Of a stretch of 37,863 nucleotides of DNA, positions 1-31,665 are shown piece after piece (positions within the stretch are counted from its first letter, which is position 1; each line of letters begins with the position of its first letter). Both the position numbers and the translations under genes were made by a program. The stretch spans positions 1 through 37,863 of the IMG/VR virus record IMGVR_UViG_2684622552_000004; one strand, 5' to 3'. The notes below the pieces were generated by a model. The model saw nothing but the letters and a program-made list of their open reading frames with translations, was not told where the DNA came from and made no database searches. The DNA comes from a virus (taxonomy: Duplodnaviria; Heunggongvirae; Uroviricota; Caudoviricetes).

Positions 1-1512
1 ATGATGTTAAATAATAAAAAACACTATTCAACATATATTTTGATATCAGTACTTATTATTATGTTACTGATAAGGGAGTTTTGGTTTGCTAGCAGACAGG
101 GACTACATATCGATGAGTCTCTGTCTTTTATCCTATCCGCCTATAAAGATTATGGATGGACAAAGGTTTTTGGTTCTCTAACAGAGATAACTGGTAGCCA
201 GGTACGGCAGTTGATATGGTTCAGTGACGATTCTATAAAAGGAATGCTTCGCGATGTATATCATTTGTGGCAAGATAACAGAGACACCCCTCATAGCAAT
301 CTATATTATTCATTATTAAGAATGTGGTTCACTGGGATAAATCCAGAAGGCAACACTTCATTTATAACAAACTGGGCATTTAAGCTTAACCAGTTATTTT
401 TCGTTGTTTCTTTTGTTGCCATATACGGCATAGCGAATAGGTTATTCAACAGTAAACAAATAGCAATATTGGTAGTTTTTGTTTCATTCATTAATACAGC
501 ATCTATATCAAACAGCATTTTTCTTAGACCATATCAAATGCAAGAAGCGCTTGTAGCGATATATACGCTTACCAGCCTAATTTTAATTAGAGAAAAATTA
601 TCATTGCGCTTATTGGTTATCCATTCAATTTCAACATCACTTGCAATGTTGAGCGGCTATTTTGCTCTATTTTATGTTGCAATGATTTCTGTTTTCTTAT
701 TTCCCTATTTAATTATAAAGTATAAAAATAATTTAAAAAACGCCATCTCATTTGCAGTAAAATACATCGCACTAACCTCGATTATTTCTTACGCGGTATA
801 TCCAAAATATTTTTTCGTTGATGGGAACAGGCAAGGAGAGGCATTAGATAAGCTTGGTAGTTTTAGCGACAACCTAGTTAATTCAGTAAAATCATTGTCT
901 ATGATTAATGACTTCTTTCCTATCGGGGTGTTAATCGCGCTAACAGTCATAGCGGTGTCATTGTTTTTTATTGTTAAGAATAAAAACATAATGAGTGAAA
1001 CTAATTACTTTGTATTTATTCTTGCATCAACCGTTATGATGTGGGTGATAATCGTGCAATTATTATCCCCATATAAGAACCTTGCTAGATATATATACCC
1101 ATCACTGCCTATGTTTGGTTTGTTTTACGGATATATAGTATTCAGCATATATAACAATTATAAATCAGTAAAGGCATTACCCATCATTGCATCAGTAGTT
1201 ATATTGATATCATCTACGTATTTATATTTTAATGGTGAAAAGGTCGATTATATTAATAAAAATAGAGAAAAAGATTGCGCCATTATTCCTGAACATAGTG
1301 TCATAATAGCAAAATCACCATGGAAAATGGGATACATTGCAACCTGCCTTAATTCAGAGGAAAAGTACGGAATGACTAATAATTTTGACTATAACATTTT
1401 CAAATCAAAAGGGTATACCACTATAATAAGCGACCAAGATATAACCAGCGAAAACGTTAAATTAGTTAATGGAAATGTCATGGTCTACTTCAAAAAATAC
1501 AGCATGAATTGA
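1..1512 (+). CDS. Polytopic membrane protein, putative O-antigen-modifying glycosyltransferase (GtrC-like serotype conversion)
   Basis: 503-aa ORF with many hydrophobic helices, visibly AT-rich versus the rest of the window. Convergent with the tailspike gene, the position GtrC occupies in P22-like prophages. Assignment is positional; no motif was verified. Confidence 0.4.
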   Translation: MMLNNKKHYSTYILISVLIIMLLIREFWFASRQGLHIDESLSFILSAYKDYGWTKVFGSLTEITGSQVRQLIWFSDDSIKGMLRDVYHLWQDNRDTPHSNLYYSLLRMWFTGINPEGNTSFITNWAFKLNQLFFVVSFVAIYGIANRLFNSKQIAILVVFVSFINTASISNSIFLRPYQMQEALVAIYTLTSLILIREKLSLRLLVIHSISTSLAMLSGYFALFYVAMISVFLFPYLIIKYKNNLKNAISFAVKYIALTSIISYAVYPKYFFVDGNRQGEALDKLGSFSDNLVNSVKSLSMINDFFPIGVLIALTVIAVSLFFIVKNKNIMSETNYFVFILASTVMMWVIIVQLLSPYKNLARYIYPSLPMFGLFYGYIVFSIYNNYKSVKALPIIASVVILISSTYLYFNGEKVDYINKNREKDCAIIPEHSVIIAKSPWKMGYIATCLNSEEKYGMTNNFDYNIFKSKGYTTIISDQDITSENVKLVNGNVMVYFKKYSMN

Positions 1513-1519
1513 TTAACAC

Positions 1520-1548
1520 GGCCCCATTATAGATGGGGCCACTTTTAG
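1520..1548. terminator. Bidirectional hairpin terminator between convergent genes
   Basis: Perfect 8-bp inverted repeat GGCCCCAT / ATGGGGCC with 5-nt loop, followed by CTTTT, in the 32-bp gap between the membrane-protein gene and the tailspike gene. Confidence 0.5.
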
Positions 1549-3980
1549 ATATTAGATGTTTGAATTATATCTGTATTCGCTTTATTGGAGGAAGGGTAAT
1601 TACAAGTAAATGTTGAATTCAATGTCGCATTTTCTCCAAACCATAGCTTATTTGTTGTACTAACAGAACCAGAGACAGATCCAGATATTTCCAATCCATT
1701 TATAGCATCTCTGAATGTATTTTTAACGCATCTAATGGTTTGATAATGAGATAACCATGACTGCCCTCCAGTATCCCTAAACAAACATGATGCTGCTGGT
1801 ACGCCAGGAGTTGATGAACTAATAAAATTACCTATCATTTCAAGGTAATTATATGGTCCAGTTAATGCAGTACCTGCAGGAAGGCTAGCAATGATATTGC
1901 CACCATTAAGGATGTTATTGTTTACCCTCATTATCTTTGGTGTATATCCTGACGGACTTATATCCAGTAAATATGAGTTATTCACACCAAAGTCATTATC
2001 ATTAATTTCAACCACACAGGAGCTTGAACATTTTATATTAAATCTTGTATAAGTCCCTTCAAATTTATTGCGATTTAACCTCACATAATTAAACCCATTG
2101 CCTAAGTTAGAATACATGCTACCGAAGAAGCGAGTTCCTGGTATTGCGTTATTCCATATGAATTTATTGGAATTGATATCCAGAGATGTTGAATAACTCC
2201 CGAAAGAAAATGAACAGTTCCTGAATTCATTCCCTTGAATTAATACTTTTTCAAAATTACTTACATGTAGATTGGCTGTTGAGGTTACTAAAAGCCTGCC
2301 CATGATATTGTTTGTTAGGCGCAGTGATGAGTTTGATATTTCTGGCTGGTCAACACCAATAATCATTCCATCACCAGTTATGTTTATTGTGTTATTATCA
2401 ATCCTCCAATCAGAGTTAGTTATATGAGTATAAATAGTCATAAAAGTAGGGGCTTGGAAAACATTATTCTCAATATTAACATTATAGGATGTCATCAAAT
2501 AATCGTTACTTCCAGAAGCACCCAATAAAAATATTCTATCCTTAGATAAAACAGTATTTCCGCTAATAGTTATAGCTCTTAACCAGTTAGTGTTAAACCA
2601 TTCCGTTCCTTTATTGTTGCTGATCATCATCCACATTCCATCACATGTTGCTGTGTTTCCTGTTACTGTGATCTGCCCCCATGGCTGAACCTGAGCAGCA
2701 CCAGTTCCGCCACCCGTATCAAATGCCATACAATAATCAATGATATCAAATGTATTGCCAGTAACTGTATATCTGTTAAAACCGAATCTACCTTTAACCG
2801 CTCCATTTCCGCGAGTATTTATTCTATTCCTGAAGGTATTACCTGTTACAGTAATATCACCAACCAGAATTCCATTACCCTGATCTGTAAATGCTGCTCC
2901 TGCGGTATAAACCGCATGGTCATACCATCCAAGAAATGAGCAACTAGACACTCGAAGGTTTCTGGCATTCCCTACAACACAACCACCAGGTGCGTCTTTA
3001 AAAACCATATCAAAAACGACCAGTCCTGACGTTTTTTTGTCATGGTTATAATATGTCTCTCCAGCAACTGGGATGTTACCATCAGGACCATGTATATAAG
3101 GAGATGTACCACCTGGTTCGATATCACCATAATAAGTTTGGTCTGGAATTCCTGTAGTGCTGCTGGTTCCCGATGCAGCAACTTCAATTGAACGTGCATT
3201 ACCATCAATTTGTAACCCATGCACCGACTGAGCACCTACAGCACCACTCAGGAATCGGAATAATTTACGGGTATCTCTTGCCGGATCAATCTCGGTCGTA
3301 GAACCTTCAACAAAGTATGTGCGATACCGGCGAGTAATAGTTGCTGAACCATCGCCCCATACTGAACGAACATATGACCATACATTAACAGCCGTATCAA
3401 AACAGTATATTCCAGTTGGGAAGTATACGGAGCATTTAAGATTATGCGCCTCATCCATGACCATCTGAACTTTAGGCTGATGGTTTATTGAAAGGTCACC
3501 AGATGCCAAAGCAGCCAGCTCTGCTTCGTTCATATATTTTGTAGCCAGAATACTTGGTGTCTTCTCTACATATTCATCAAGTGTTCCATATCGGGTGTTT
3601 ACAAGAGAACCATTGCCATTAGCTAATTCAAGGCGCAACTGGTCAGGATCGTATTTCAGTACATTAGGATAATAGAACTGCTGTGCCCCGTACGCATCAT
3701 AAACAGCCATAGAATGGCCTTTCACAGTTACGAACTTGGCAATCTGCCCGTTATATACAGGATATCCAGCAGCGTTAATGATGATTGGTTGCGAAACAGG
3801 AACGTGAGAACCATCTTCGTTCTCTATATAAACCTGAATCTGGTTTTCAGGATTTACCGGGTCAGTGTCAATTTTTCCGATATAAATTTTTCCATTGGCT
3901 ACGGCTTTAAAAGAACGCGCCATAGTGAAGAGTTGCGAAGGCATACTCACTACAACATTGGCATTTATTGAATCTGTCAT
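1545..3980 (-). CDS. Tailspike protein: P22 gp9-type N-terminal head-binding domain plus divergent beta-helix receptor-binding domain
   Basis: N-terminus [12 protein letters not shown]...[12 protein letters not shown]...DTDPVNP...[10 protein letters not shown]...VLKYDPDQ closely resembles the P22 tailspike head-binding domain. The rest has repeated VTGNTF / ISGNT / IDNNT rungs typical of parallel beta-helix O-antigen depolymerases. Start moved to internal ATG at 3980 (MTD...); the ORF track extends 15 codons upstream. Confidence 0.9.
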
Positions 3981-4067
3981 TTTAATTTCTCTATATGTTA
4001 AGCCAGCAATATTCATTGCTAGCATGTTTTTTGTATAATGAGTGCACTTTATTTAAAGGTGGTTAAC

Positions 4068-4577
4068 ATGAACTGGAACGAAGTATTCGTATTAAAAGAC
4101 GATGGACTCCTGTACTGGAGTGACCAATATCTTTCAAGACCCAAAATGTTCAATATCTCTAAAGAAAAGCCTGCAGGACATATATTCAAGGACAAGAACA
4201 GGAAAACCTCTTATATAATTATTAGGTATCAAGATAAAATATACGCCGCCCACAGGATAATATGGGAAATGTGTTATGGTGAAATCCCTTCCGGAATGCA
4301 AATTGACCATAAAGATGGTAATGGGTTAAATAATTCAATAGACAACCTGCGTCTAGTTAGTCTCGGTGAAAACCTAAAAAACAAATCTAAATACACAAAC
4401 AATACATCTGGGTGCGCAGGGGTTTCATGGCATAAGACCCATAAAAAGTGGGTGGCATATATTAGCGACGCAGGGAAGCGCATTAATCTCGGATACTTTA
4501 AGAGTCTCGATGATGCAATTGCTGTAAGGCGTGAGGCTGAAAAGACCTATGGTTATCATGAGAATCATGGTAGGTAA
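4068..4577 (+). CDS. HNH homing endonuclease with C-terminal AP2-like DNA-binding domain
   Basis: Motif IDHKDGNGLNNSIDNLRLVSLGENLKNKS (HNH His-Asn-Asn) followed by AP2-like segment SGCAGVSWHK...WVAYI...GKRINLGYF. SD AAAGGTGG 6 nt before the ATG at 4068. AT-rich, opposite strand to flanking virion genes. Confidence 0.8.
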   Translation: MNWNEVFVLKDDGLLYWSDQYLSRPKMFNISKEKPAGHIFKDKNRKTSYIIIRYQDKIYAAHRIIWEMCYGEIPSGMQIDHKDGNGLNNSIDNLRLVSLGENLKNKSKYTNNTSGCAGVSWHKTHKKWVAYISDAGKRINLGYFKSLDDAIAVRREAEKTYGYHENHGR

Positions 4578-13532: not shown

Positions 13533-14443
13533 TATCGAATTCCTTTATTCAGTTGCGCCTTGAGCTTGCGGTATGTCTCTACATCCCCTTTGTTTGCTGC
13601 CGCTTCCATCTGCTTTTCAATCGCAGATATATTTGCAGCAACAGCGTGTCCCTGAATGGGTTCATCAGGTAGCGGGGCTTCTGAAACAGGTTTGGCTCGA
13701 GGCTTGAGAGTTAAACGTTCTGATAGTCGAGTGAGTTCAATCAGCGCGGATTGCCCGTCCATCGCCAGCAACTGGCGTGTTTTCTCAGGATTAGCACCAA
13801 GGTGATACATGAGAGCAGCGGATTTCTCCGGGAAGAGGCGCATGATGTCGGCACCGACTGCTGGCGGCACCAGTTGCATGAATGCATCCTCTTTCTCCTG
13901 ATAGTCAGGGATATTGAGCTTTTCCGCTGCGTCGTAGTGCTTACGGGCTGCCTCGACGTATTGCGCTGATTGCTGGGTGAACTCCTGAGTTTTGCGACCC
14001 TGCTCGGCGACAGCCTGGCTTCGTGCGTCCATAGCCTTGATCTGCCATTCACTATTTGCCTGCTGGAAGGCAGCCAGTGCGCGGCTCTGGTCATAGTCGT
14101 ACTTAGCCAGTGCATCTTCGGAAAGATAATCGTTAGGGTCTGGTTGTTTTGGTAACTCAGGGTTCACCCGCAGGTGCTCCGGCAACTCTCCACGCTTAAC
14201 CGCTTCCATCTGCTGCTCAAGCTCACGCTGGCGTTTGCGTTCGATGCGGCGACGGGCAAATTCAGCATTAGTTGCCGGGTCTTGTTTTGGTTTCTCATCG
14301 TCTTTCAGGACAATCTCGAAGCCTTCTTCCTGACCTGCGATGTCGTTGGCATTATCGACAACTAAGCCATCAGCAGATGCCGCTGCATGATTGCCGGGCA
14401 GGGTTAATTCTTCAGAAGCCTGAATGTCGGTGGTTTGGTCCAT
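13532..14443 (-). CDS. Scaffolding protein, P22 gp8-like
   Basis: 303 aa (same as P22 gp8), highly charged helical protein immediately upstream of coat; stop overlaps coat start. Confidence 0.85.
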
Positions 14444-14456
14444 GGTTAACTCTCTC

Positions 14457-16622
14457 TTATTGAGGTGTCTCGGCTACTCCGCCGGAGGGGATTTGAACTT
14501 GACGCATAAGATTCGCGAAATCCATGCGTTGTGAATGAGTCTGGTCTGCATCTTTAAGAAGCAGCTCAGCGTTAGCACGAGCATCTTTGCTGCGCTGTTG
14601 CTGGAATTGACCTACGAGCTTGAGGTACTCACGCAGTTCTGCCTGCTTGTCGAGGTCCATATTGTTGAAGATTTCCGCAATCTTCGCGGCGTTGAGTTGG
14701 TTTTGGGCTTCAACCTTGGCGGCTTCAACCTGAATCTGCGCCTGTTGGTTCTCTGCCTTGAGCAATTCAGCCTGACCTTGCAGAAGGATACCCTGCGCCT
14801 GAATTTGCTCTGCTGATGGCTGCTGCGGCTGCTGTTGAGCCTGCTGTACCATCTCCATCTCTTCAGGTGTTTCTGGCTTCTTCAGCCCCATCATCACCAG
14901 TTGCTTGTTCGCGTACTCTCGCATCATCTCGACGCCTTTACCGTCAAGCAGCGTGAAGTATTGCAGCATCAGCATCTGGAACTCTGGAGTACCTTGCGGA
15001 ACCTTGGTGAGCAACTCCTGAATCTCTGCGCGGTTCTGTTCCTTCATACTCTGGAAGGATGGTCCTACGTCTGTATAGCACTCATAGCGACCGCGAATGT
15101 CGTTGAGTGTGACCACATTGCCGGACTGGTAATCGACAACTTGCGCATAGAGTTGAACGTCTTTCTCGCTTCCGTCTTCAAGAGTCAGCGTTACATGGCG
15201 AGGAACGTCATAAATATCGTTGACCATTGAGGCATAAATCTCGCCATCACGTCGCATTGCGGTAGCCAGGTTATCCTGAAACACGTATGTCTCAAGGTCT
15301 GCCCGCATGTTCAGTTGATTGACGGTATCGAAAGCGACCTGACCATTTGCCGCCTGCGCATCAACGCCAAGACTAGCCACCTCTTTCACTGCGTTGGTGG
15401 CTGCCTCAAGCATGTAAGCGTTGGCTTGCGGCACTTCAGGGTTTTCCATGTAGGAGATTGGACCAATCGGCAGGTCGTTACCGTTTTCATCGGTCCTGTT
15501 CTGCAGATAGTACGGATAGTCATCATTTCCACCGTACATGTATTCGTAGCCTTCGATTTGCTCAGGGAAGAAGGTAGGTTTCTTCTTCGGTGAGCGAGCA
15601 ACAATATCGGCGTTGAATGACATGATCATGTTACGAAGGCGTTGACCGTCTTTCGTCAGCCTTACCACGCCCTCGTAGCACTCCTTGTCACCAGCGAATG
15701 ACCATTCGCCGTACACAGGAACGATTGGGATATGCTCTCCGGCTATCTTCTCGCGGTCTTTCAGTATCTGCGTGCAGGTGATGATCGACTTATACACACG
15801 CCGACGCTTGACCTTACGCTCTGCTACCTTAATGAATCCACGATTAGCCAGGTCGTCGATGACGTCTTTGATATCCTGCTGGTAATAGCTGACCGGCTCA
15901 CCTGTCAGCGGGTCGCGGTAGATGAAGACTTTCTCTTTCTTCTCTTCGACCTCGTAATACTCAGCGACGTAGACGACATCATTCGATACCCACGGAAACA
16001 GCCATGTGTCGTTCGGATTCTGGAAAGATGGCAGAGTGTCAGGATCAATACCGTAATCCTCTGCGAACTCTTTCCAGCCATTGCGTGACAAAGCGTTAAT
16101 CACCGTGCAGTGCTTAGCGTCGCTCTTATCCATCTGCTTGCTGTTGGCGTCCCATATGACGTGTGAGCAGGCTTCATGGATTGGCAGGCGTCGGATTACC
16201 TGATTGTTGCTTGTTGGGTCGTTGTCTTCGTACTGCGTGACCAGACGCCATGCACCAACGCCAGACTCTATCTGCTCACGAACGCCAACGTTAACGGCAA
16301 TCTTTGCCGTGTTATGGCGCATATCAGTACGATACATCCCCATCAACACATCGGCTGCATCAGTATTAGCGCCGTCTTTGGGTCGGAAGAGAACGTCGAT
16401 AGGGTTCCGGCGCATCTCTGCGACCAGTTTCCTGACCACCGGGCGAACAACATCGAATTGTCCGCGATATTGCAGGGTCGTGTAGTTTGATAGCCAGTCA
16501 TCCCATTGCGACACTCGGCTAAAATACAGGTCATTTGTCGCCTCGGTTCTGGCTTCATCGCTCGCCATCCAGTCCGCGTCAAACTTACACAGAATGGAAT
16601 TGAGTCTGTTTTCGTCGGCCAT
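14457..16622 (-). CDS. Portal protein, P22 gp1-like
   Basis: 721 aa; [44 protein letters not shown]...[17 protein letters not shown] and a Q-rich C-terminal barrel-like tail as in P22 portal. Confidence 0.9.
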
Positions 16623-29747: not shown

Positions 29748-30047
29748 ATGACAGTAGTCATTACATATCTGGCTGACGATAACACCAGAAATCGCCGCAG
29801 AGCACGCAGACAGGCTCAACGTGAACAGGCAATGCAAGAACAGCGACTGGCGCGAAAGATTGCGCTAAAGCTCTCTGGTTGCGTCAGAGCAGATAAAGCA
29901 GCATCACTCGGAAGCCTTCGCTGCAAGAAGGCAGAAGAAGTCGAGCGTAAACAGAACCGTATTTACTACAGCAAGCCACGTAGTGAAATGGGTGTGACTT
30001 GTGTTGGTCGCCAGAAAATGAAATTAGGCAGCAAACCACTTATTTGA
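29748..30047 (+). CDS. N: Antitermination protein N
   Basis: Arg-rich N-terminus NTRNRRRARRQAQREQ and C-terminus RIYYSKPRSEMGVTCVGRQKMKLGSKPLI resembling lambda N (RTWYSKPGERGITCSGRQKIKGKSIPLI); SD GGAGG. Confidence 0.85.
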   Translation: MTVVITYLADDNTRNRRRARRQAQREQAMQEQRLARKIALKLSGCVRADKAASLGSLRCKKAEEVERKQNRIYYSKPRSEMGVTCVGRQKMKLGSKPLI

Positions 30048-30055
30048 GGTGAGAT

Positions 30056-30142
30056 ATGGAAGAAGAATTTGAAGAGTTCGAAGAGCATCCGCAGGATGTG
30101 ATGGAACAATACCAGGACTATCCTTATGACTACGACTATTGA
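30056..30142 (+). CDS. Candidate 28-aa acidic peptide
   Basis: MEEEFEEFEEHPQDVMEQYQDYPYDYDY with SD GAGGTGA; overlaps the ral start. Below the ORF-track cutoff; speculative. Confidence 0.2.
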   Translation: MEEEFEEFEEHPQDVMEQYQDYPYDYDY

Positions 30143-30326
30143 TAAGAATCAATGGTGTGGACAATTCAAGCGATGCAATGGATGCAAGCTGCAATCGGAA
30201 TGCATGGTTAAGCCTGAAGAAATGTTTCCTGTAATGGAAGATGGGAAATATGTCGATAAATGGGCAATACGCACGACGGCAATGATTGCCAGAGAACTTG
30301 GTAAACAGAACAACAAGGCTGCCTGA
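30126..30326 (+). CDS. ral: Restriction alleviation protein Ral
   Basis: 66 aa, MTTTIDKNQWCGQFKRCNGCKLQSEC...; size, Cys pattern and position right after N match lambda Ral (sequence recalled, not searched). Confidence 0.65.
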   Translation: MTTTIDKNQWCGQFKRCNGCKLQSECMVKPEEMFPVMEDGKYVDKWAIRTTAMIARELGKQNNKAA

Positions 30327-30365
30327 TGGTGGCCTTTATTTTTGGCATAAACAATATGGGTAAAA

Positions 30366-30692
30366 ATGAAAGTTTTAATGGTTTATGAAAATGTTCCAGA
30401 GTCGACTGAAATCTATATTTTTGATGCCAATGAAGATGAAGTTAACGATTTGAAATCGTCTCACGGCAATTACACAAATGCTAATTGTGATGAAAGTATC
30501 GAAAAAGCACTATCACGTGTTCTTGTCAGAATTAGTGATCCAGAACATTGTGATGATGATTGGCTTTCTTATTGTGGAGCGGTAAAAACTGATGCAGGAA
30601 AATGGAGTAAAAGTAAAGTTGATAACTCAACTCCAATCATTATGAAAGATAGTGATATTGAAATGGTAATAATAACCGGAATGATTATGTAG
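30366..30692 (+). CDS. Hypothetical AT-rich acidic protein
   Basis: 108 aa, net acidic (about 22 D/E versus 10 K/R by hand count), visibly AT-rich relative to neighbours. Confidence 0.5.
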   Translation: MKVLMVYENVPESTEIYIFDANEDEVNDLKSSHGNYTNANCDESIEKALSRVLVRISDPEHCDDDWLSYCGAVKTDAGKWSKSKVDNSTPIIMKDSDIEMVIITGMIM

Positions 30693-30798
30693 GCTGCGAA
30701 TAAGCACTGTGTATTCATTCCAGCGAGTGAATACACGGAGCAATGTCGCTCGTAACTAAACAGGAGCCGACTTGTTCTGATTATTGGAAATCTTCTTT

Positions 30799-30826
30799 GC
30801 CCTCCAGTGTGAGGGCTATTTTTTAT
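30799..30826 (+). terminator. Intrinsic terminator within the pL operon (tL-like)
   Basis: GCCCTC-CAGTGT-GAGGGC hairpin followed by TATTTTTTAT. A second perfect 9-bp hairpin GTGTATTCA-N10-TGAATACAC lies at 30709-30736. Confidence 0.6.
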
Positions 30827-30844
30827 CTATGAGGATATGAACAG

Positions 30845-31213
30845 ATGTCAAACATCAAAAAATACATCATTGATTACGACTGGAAAGCATCAATAGAAAT
30901 TGAAATCGACCATGACGTAATGACAGAGGAAAAACTTCGCCAGATTAATAATTTCTGGTCAGACTCTGAATACCGACTCAATAAACACGGCTCTGTATTA
31001 AATGCTGTATTAATCATGCTGGCGCAACATGCTCTGCTTATAGCAATTTCGAAAGACTTAAATGCATATGGTGTTGTTTGTGAGTTCGACTGGGATGATG
31101 GAAATGGTCAGGAAGGATGGCCTCCAATGGATGGTAGCGAAGGAATAAGAATTACCGATATCGATACATCAGGAATATTTGATTCAGATGATATGACTAT
31201 CAAAACAGCCTGA
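30845..31213 (+). CDS. Hypothetical AT-rich acidic protein
   Basis: 122 aa, net acidic (about 23 D/E versus 10 K/R), Asp-rich C-terminal half (FDWDDGNGQEGWPPMDG...TDIDTSGIFDSDDM). Confidence 0.5.
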   Translation: MSNIKKYIIDYDWKASIEIEIDHDVMTEEKLRQINNFWSDSEYRLNKHGSVLNAVLIMLAQHALLIAISKDLNAYGVVCEFDWDDGNGQEGWPPMDGSEGIRITDIDTSGIFDSDDMTIKTA

Positions 31214-31248
31214 AAGTGGCTTTAACACCTGCCAATGACGGAGGAATT

Positions 31249-31665
31249 ATGGAAATTACAGATATCCTGGTTAATCCAGATAATTACGAACAATTCAACA
31301 TCTCTACTCAATCAGTTGATTTGGGATGTGCAACTGTCAGCGCATGGCTACTTAATGGTAAACAGTTGGATAAATGCCTTGATGCACATATGACGGTTAA
31401 CAGCTTCCTTGCAGAAAAGACACACTGGCAAGATGCTGGAGGGAAATATGCCGGATGGCTTGAAAGCATGGGATTTGAATATCAATCTGATGAAGGTTGG
31501 TGGAGCCTTATAGCTGTAACGCCTGAGACAATAGAATGCTTCGTTAAATACTCAAACGACGATGACTATAAACACCAGGTAGATTCTGCGATAGAAAGAT
31601 ATAAAAGAAAATCATTCAGCCACGAAATATCATCAGTTCTTGATTTCATAGAAGTCTTCAAATAA
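31249..31665 (+). CDS. Hypothetical acidic protein
   Basis: 138 aa from ATG 31249 with strong SD GGAGGAATT; 36 nt downstream of the previous gene. Confidence 0.5.
   Translation: MEITDILVNPDNYEQFNISTQSVDLGCATVSAWLLNGKQLDKCLDAHMTVNSFLAEKTHWQDAGGKYAGWLESMGFEYQSDEGWWSLIAVTPETIECFVKYSNDDDYKHQVDSAIERYKRKSFSHEISSVLDFIEVFK

Follow-up and report, generated by a model that had tools for sequence, protein, structure and literature searches.

A chimeric P22-type tailspike beside a gtrABC operon in a P22-like Escherichia fergusonii prophage, with a predicted O-antigen target

Introduction

The receptor domains of tailspikes decide which O-serogroups a phage infects, and they are swapped in the engineering of phages, tailocins and diagnostics. 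The question raised by the tailspike gene studied here is what kind of receptor domain it encodes, where that domain came from, and whether the membrane-protein gene beside it belongs to the same unit. The gene lies in the IMG/VR virus record IMGVR_UViG_2684622552_000004 (positions 1 to 37,863; this whole stretch of 37,863 nucleotides (nt) is called the window), a P22-like (Lederbergvirus-type) prophage of Escherichia fergusonii which is apparently complete and whose backbone matches phage IME10 at 96% identity across 69% of window positions 4600-29000. A preliminary description, made from the sequence alone, had proposed that the tailspike is a chimera and that, with the adjacent membrane-protein gene, it forms a host-range and serotype-conversion module. 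Our results agree with both proposals: the membrane protein is the gtrC product of a gtrABC operon with a predicted GT-C fold, and its gene is inherited together with the distal part of the tailspike receptor domain. The tailspike and the operon probably address the O-antigen and form a matched cassette that is exchanged by recombination.

Results and discussion

Domain architecture of the tailspike

The tailspike coding sequence (1545-3980, minus strand) was found to be intact and to encode 811 amino acids, exactly matching NCBI entry WP_046081710.1 from E. fergusonii, which is named 'phage head-binding domain-containing protein' and has no function assigned. It is the last gene of the late operon, following homologues of P22 gp7 (PF25688), a gp20-like protein (PF16928 Inj_translocase) and gp16 (PF26808 P22_gp16). 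A longer open reading frame (ORF) of 826 amino acids, starting at an ATG at 4025 and adding 15 residues, was rejected because the Sf6 gp14 homologue begins at the same MTD as the start at 3980 and the alignment with P22 gp9 begins from residue 2-3.

Residues 1-115 (3636-3980, minus strand) constitute the head-binding, or virion-attachment, domain, which ends at a conserved LKYDPDQ hinge and was delimited by Pfam, PDB and DNA homology. The PF09008 Head_binding family matched residues 4-114 (E 4.3e-66), and a PDB sequence search returned matches to residues 1-120 only, with E values of 6e-63 for Sf6 gp14 and about 1e-48 for several P22 gp9 entries. The identity of this domain was 89% to Sf6 gp14 and 75% to P22 gp9. 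The preliminary description had placed the first 120 or so residues close to P22 gp9; the head-binding domain and its coordinates stand, while the closer relatives are Sf6 and HK620 and not P22. At the nucleotide level, a megablast search of 50,697 phage records gave a match limited to the first ~345 nt of the gene (ending at gene nt ~342-349), with phages HK620 (92%) and Sf6 (88%), and also CUS-3 and epsilon34, among those matching. In 1,104 of 5,426 complete E. coli genomes, homology to the tailspike region likewise ends at window 3621-3643, corresponding to residue ~113-120. These results confirm that a P22-type head-binding domain is joined to a divergent receptor domain.

Past residue ~120, the tailspikes of P22 (gp9), Sf6 (gp14) and HK620 showed no detectable sequence similarity to the window tailspike. 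For P22 gp9, neither sequence nor profile comparison gave a match between residues ~125-666, which include E359, D392 and D395, and the window protein, so the remainder of the protein is indeed unlike the P22 endorhamnosidase; the catalytic residues are not alignable and the fold relation is a generic one, at 8-18% identity. Searches of the PDB with the sequence, with the family profile and with the conserved core 190-450 (E up to 10) returned no relative of residues 121-811.

Predicted fold of the receptor domain

The tailspike was modelled as a monomer with AlphaFold2 from an alignment of 35 homologues. The model had a mean predicted local distance difference test (pLDDT) score of 79.9 and a predicted template modelling (pTM) score of 0.77, with residues 140-806 mostly at 80-98, and over these residues strand-turn-strand rungs run to the C-terminus. 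The N-terminus was of low confidence because the alignment mixes different N-termini. The model thus supports the reading of residues ~120-811 as one long right-handed beta-helix, and the rung repeats seen in the preliminary description are borne out by the model and by its fold matches. A PF09008 N-terminus, a position at the end of a P22-like late operon and a predicted right-handed parallel beta-helix together place the protein in the P22-type tailspike class. The helix is far longer than that of P22, with ~620 residues of continuous beta-helix in comparison to 13 rungs, and, in contrast to P22-like tailspikes, the monomer model shows no obvious separate C-terminal domain.

Among the top matches in the fold comparison were polysaccharide enzymes, namely the AlgE4 epimerase (29.0), the RbmB lyase (27.4), a K1 capsule lyase (26.6) and a polygalacturonase (25.9), and tailspikes, namely HK620 (26.3) and those of cyanophage Pam1, 9NA and Det7 (24.5-26.3); a search of BFVD found nothing closer in fold. 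These matches do not discriminate hydrolase from lyase chemistry. Instead of an endoglycosidase, the helix could in principle be a lyase acting on polysaccharide, or an esterase such as a deacetylase, while still being specific for O-antigen; we consider this alternative unlikely.

Conservation was not uniform along the helix. The neck and proximal beta-helix (residues 116-330; 2991-3635, minus strand) form the conserved scaffold of the receptor-domain family, and the distal beta-helix (residues 331-811; 1545-2990, minus strand) is, from the model and the conservation profile, presumed to determine specificity. Many invariant columns lie between residues 143 and 442, including a conserved acidic/basic cluster of D329, D354-H355, R386-R403 and D412, and the most variable rungs are those of residues 500-730. 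The acidic, histidine and arginine residues between 329 and 412 may be regarded as a candidate active site, and the variable rungs at residues ~500-730 as candidate specificity subsites.

Relatives of the receptor domain

The family to which the receptor domain belongs is small, comprising 35 clusters at 90% identity, and only 15 matches at E <= 0.001 were obtained among 1.84 billion representatives at 50% identity. A search with one genome per species gave a single distant locus, in C. werkmanii, at 40%. The closest relative in an annotated, isolated phage is tail spike 3 (TSP3; Vi01_172c) of the Kuttervirus Vi01, together with its homologue in KEP4; by tblastn, Vi01 TSP3 is 52% identical in amino acids to residues 121-811 at 100% coverage (E = 0). 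The receptor domain is therefore homologous over its full length, but the distal helix is only ~48% identical. Vi01 TSP3 also differs in its adaptor, which is of the PF18668 type (the myovirus baseplate branch), and Vi01, being lytic, is without gtr genes. We found no receptor of Vi01 TSP3 stated in the literature, including PMC8432352 and PMC10892097.

Members of the family bear at least three different N-terminal adaptors, PF09008 (P22-like), PF18668 (the Ackermannviridae TSP type) and PF03906 (the T7 tail-fibre type). The same receptor domain behind all three, and a copy at 95% nucleotide identity in a Citrobacter siphophage remnant, establish the module exchange suggested in the preliminary description; exchange of receptor domains between phage genera is a familiar pattern (PMC8432352, PMC10408124, PMC2629481). 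Across 20 loci, the proximal helix (121-330) was always more conserved than the distal helix (331-811), and identity of the distal helix fell into discrete classes of >=96%, 65-71%, 48-52% and 35-39%.

The gtrC gene and the gtrABC operon

The membrane-protein gene next to the tailspike (1-1512, plus strand) encodes 503 amino acids. Its product is a polytopic membrane protein, predicted from operon context, AlphaFold2 and Foldseek to be a gtrC-type serotype-specific O-antigen glycosyltransferase. In the source genome (GCA_000968895.2; locus L003), a PF00535 GT2 gene (gtrB, of the bactoprenol glucosyltransferase type) at 13967-14899 lies directly upstream of gtrC and overlaps its start, and a PF04138 GtrA-family, flippase-like gene (gtrA) at 14896-15258 lies next to gtrB, outside the window. 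Past gtrA there is a partial tRNA, followed by the host genes hmp and glyA. With gtrA and gtrB upstream, the first position of the window is therefore the start of gtrC, the gtrABC operon being located at the end of the prophage, and this arrangement supports the assignment of the membrane protein as gtrC of a gtrA-gtrB-gtrC operon.

The same layout, with gtrA (PF04138), gtrB (GT2) and a variable polytopic gtrC at the prophage end by the attachment site, is found in Shigella SfII, SfV and SfX and in Salmonella epsilon34. Unlike GtrC in those cases, the window GtrC matched no family in Pfam, NCBIfam or PHROG, and its homologues are few (16 clusters at 90% identity). Because the family libraries gave no match, the structure was predicted. 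The AlphaFold2 model (pLDDT 84.6, pTM 0.86) showed more than 10 long helices in a polytopic bundle with a small C-terminal domain, and Foldseek placed it in the GT-C superfamily (STT3, PglB, AglB, ArnT, PMT and ALG enzymes) with a probability of 1.0 and a TM score of ~0.5. D38-E39 is nearly invariant (at least 90% of sequences) and R94-D95-x-P-H is invariant. These features agree with those of a GtrC, an inner-membrane glycosyltransferase whose sugar donor is a polyprenyl phosphate. From its partnership with gtrA and gtrB (PMC2629481), GtrC would be expected to glucosylate its substrate.

A GC-rich hairpin (1520-1540) with a 9-bp stem, six pairs of which are GC, lies between the convergent tailspike and gtrC genes. 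The terminator scan showed it to be terminator-like for gtrC, with the T-run on the plus strand, and it is kept within the shared cassette described below.

Two further observations were made beside the operon. Upstream of gtrA, toward hmp, L003 15440-15520 resembles the 3' end of a tRNA gene (GGTTCGAATCC-type T-arm, opposite strand), and this tRNA-like sequence probably represents attR at a tRNA integration site. In addition, ATCGATCGAT, a palindrome containing GATC, is located ~45 nt upstream of gtrA; the gtr operon of P22 is phase-variable through Dam and OxyR.

Mosaic structure and co-inheritance

A sliding-window nucleotide comparison identified a block of ~3.75 kb, reaching from tailspike residue ~233 to residue 811 and through gtrC to the middle of gtrB, that is common to four contexts. 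The block is mostly 90-99% identical, with 83-89% in a few 150-nt windows, and both flanks are 73-81% identical. The backbones that carry it are P22-like prophages (E. fergusonii and Salmonella Lattenkamp), a siphophage remnant (Citrobacter portucalensis) and an E. coli remnant, and the N-terminal tailspike adaptors differ among the three backbone types. The part of this mobile cassette inside the window spans 1-3284 and comprises the middle and distal tailspike helix, the terminator and gtrC; beyond the window, the cassette extends over the 3' half of gtrB.

In C. portucalensis, a contig colinear with window 1-3611 is 95.4% identical over 3,618 nt and spans gtrC, the hairpin and the tailspike from residue ~124. 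The Citrobacter tailspike, whose N-terminus is of the PF18668 type, is split between two ORFs (465 and 363 amino acids), and the gene before it encodes a tail-tip protein 86% identical to those of the temperate siphophages CobraSix and ENT47670. Salmonella Lattenkamp carries the cassette in a P22-like prophage at the argW/yfdC site, with an intact 811-residue tailspike that is 95.6% identical. In the E. coli remnants, the cassette adjoins tail-fibre and tail-fibre-assembly genes, and the tailspike has a third N-terminus and 826 amino acids.

These copies bear on the possibility that the window tailspike is a decaying relic without present function, only gtrABC being maintained. The broken Citrobacter tailspike and that of E. 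coli GDSC2227PM, which has an internal stop, are pseudogenes beside intact conversion genes, and the E. coli cassette copies are located in prophage remnants, as would be expected in that case. The window ORF, however, is intact over its 811 residues, the window prophage retains integrase, cI, cII, RecT, replication, lysis, terminase, portal, coat, tail and ejection genes, and the Lattenkamp copy is also full-length, which makes decay a very unlikely explanation.

The other side of the mosaic is represented by a prophage remnant in E. coli GDSC2227PM, which is 97-100% identical in nucleotides from the HNH gene upstream of the tailspike through residue ~330 and 65-80% identical thereafter, and which has an acyltransferase and an SGNH protein in place of the gtr genes. 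Similarly, in IMG/VR locus L018 the proximal tailspike part is 100% identical in amino acids and the distal part 67%. Over residues ~233-330 (2991-3284, minus strand), identity to the window is at least 91-100% for both the 'left parent' (the GDSC2227PM prophage) and the 'right parent' (the Citrobacter, Salmonella and E. coli cassette copies). From this breakpoint pattern, seen from both sides, it follows that the window tailspike is a recombinant with a crossover inside the beta-helix, in residues ~233-330. The chimera therefore has two junctions, one at the LKYDPDQ hinge (residue ~115-123) and one within the helix.

The co-occurrence of gtrC with the distal helix was compared across the 20 loci, some of the IMG/VR loci among them ending 1-3 kb past the tailspike. 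The GtrC type of the window (at least 92% amino acid identity) occurs only beside a distal helix of at least 96% identity, and the loci with a distal helix of 71% or less are without it, showing that gtrC is inherited together with the distal receptor domain. The wider proposition that every family member is linked to the same gtrC type was rejected; the neighbours vary and include an STM0557-type gtrC, a module of GT4, GNT-I and flippase genes, an acyltransferase, or none of these. The second of these arrangements was seen at L007 8487-12273, in a P22-like prophage with a 43%-identical tailspike relative (P0029), where a GT4 glycosyltransferase, a GNT-I-like glycosyltransferase and a Wzx-type flippase (Polysacc_synt) replace gtrABC; a conversion module of this sort is unusual in P22-like prophages.

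In composition, too, the cassette is foreign, with a GC content of 32.4% in gtrC and 37.5% in tailspike residues 233-811 in comparison to 48-50% in the rest of the prophage. The GC content of the window changes sharply: gtrC, the tailspike and the HNH gene have 32-42%, and positions 4752-37863 have 48-50%. The low-GC region is wider than the cassette (1 to ~3284), as it also takes in the HNH gene and the remainder of the tailspike.

Proposed mechanism and target

In the mechanism that we propose, the head-binding residues 1-115 would attach a presumed trimer to the tail, and the trimer, like other tailspikes of the P22 class, would bind the O-antigen of the host and depolymerise it. In lysogenic cells this same O-antigen would be glucosylated by GtrA, GtrB and GtrC and would then no longer be recognised by the phage's own and similar tailspikes; the glucosylated O-antigen may give rise to serotype conversion and superinfection exclusion. 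The experimental precedent is phage BTP1, whose GtrC shields the O-antigen from its own tailspike and blocks superinfection (PMC4413052), and the architecture of gtrABC with a tailspike has been described in P22-like phages (PMC2629481). The distal tailspike, gtrC and the 3' part of gtrB would be inherited as one cassette because receptor and anti-receptor must match the same polysaccharide. Exchange would take place by homologous recombination, with the conserved proximal helix and the conserved gtrB/gtrA as arms; in the window copy, the 5' part through residue ~330 would come from an E. coli-type P22-like prophage, and the 3' part from a cassette lineage also present in Salmonella O:45 serovars, Citrobacter and E. 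coli.

As to which O-antigen is concerned, both named Salmonella carriers belong to O:45, namely Lattenkamp (carrying the tailspike), which is 45:z35:1,5 (PMC7815585), and Apapa (carrying GtrC; 120 contigs), which is O45:m,t:- (PMC8025629). An O:45-type O-antigen is thus a plausible target, although this is a lead and not a demonstration, as the serovars may share the prophage by descent. Our literature search found no structure of the Salmonella O45 O-unit and no link to an E. fergusonii O-antigen. A tailspike relative with 58% identity occurs in Salmonella serovar Casablanca, presumably also O:45.

The helix might instead be directed at a capsule or exopolysaccharide (colanic acid, a K antigen or enterobacterial common antigen), its adjacency to gtrABC being merely positional. 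The best PHROG match is 8280, 'tail spike protein with colanic acid degradation activity', and the top fold matches include capsule and alginate lyases and epimerases. However, the PHROG match covers residues 2-200 only, that is, the adaptor and neck and not the body of the helix, the distal helix and the predicted O-antigen-modifying gtrC are co-inherited in four backbones, and one O serogroup is common to the named Salmonella carriers. We therefore regard a capsular target as quite unlikely and retain the O-antigen as the probable one.

A broader proposal, which we regard as about as likely as not, is that receptor and anti-receptor form a self-matched cassette that travels whole among prophages of podo-, sipho- and myo-type, with the proximal beta-helix and gtrB as arms; the species concerned would number at least four (E. 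fergusonii, E. coli, Salmonella enterica and C. portucalensis). If it is true, one recombination event would give host range and lysogenic conversion alike a new O-antigen as target, probably of the Salmonella O:45 type, and the intra-helix breakpoint would mean that the proximal rungs are a portable scaffold and catalytic platform and that the distal rungs alone set specificity.

Comparison with known systems and significance

A chimeric P22-type tailspike beside a gtr operon is of a well-known kind, and current understanding is not overturned by this locus. What is added is a clear breakpoint within the helix and evidence for a specificity region that moves with gtrC as one cassette across phage types and genera. 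BTP1 and P22 are alike in being P22-like prophages with a tailspike next to an O-antigen-modifying gtr locus, but the BTP1 GtrC is a member of another GtrC family and needs neither GtrA nor GtrB, whereas the window GtrC has a predicted GT-C fold and is accompanied by gtrA and gtrB, implying glucosylation; its functional pairing with the tailspike is suggested by analogy. We found no description in the literature of a distal tailspike and gtrC being transferred together, as a single cassette, between phage morphotypes.

The locus adds a small uncharacterised receptor-domain family, limited to enterobacterial phages, with a plausible target in the Salmonella O:45-type O-antigen. The precise natural recombination map provides a usable junction inside the beta-helix (~233-330) besides the classical hinge (~115), and the co-inheritance of a specificity region with an O-antigen-modifying enzyme is relevant to the way in which temperate phages alter serotype conversion along with host range.

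Neighbouring genes and further observations

Between gp16 and the tailspike, on the opposite strand to the tailspike, lies an HNH-AP2 endonuclease gene (4038-4577, plus strand; Pfam HNH_3, E 3.5e-19, and AP2; PHROG 99), which we treat as a neighbour and not as a demonstrated member of the module. At least 14 complete E. coli genomes have this gene together with the head-binding domain at 95-97.5% identity, with homology ending at the hinge (window ~3637). A homing-type nuclease beside a recombination hotspot could promote tailspike exchange. In Salmonella relatives, sieA or immI genes (arc, ant, mnt) are found at its position.

In the decayed prophages of C. portucalensis (L004 10001-12496) and E. 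coli GDSC2227PM (L001 5320-7761), the tailspike is split or has an internal stop and the adjacent gtrC or acyltransferase is intact; the converse, an intact tailspike with a split gtrC, was seen in E. coli at L011 5806-7318. These cases suggest that, once a prophage decays, retention differs between the two halves of the module.

The region 29748-31665 (plus strand), which lies downstream of the cI-like repressor, has a GC content of 38-39% and contains a DUF2528 protein and small ORFs without a Pfam match (29748-30047, 30366-30692 and 31216-31665), these being possible moron or exclusion genes.

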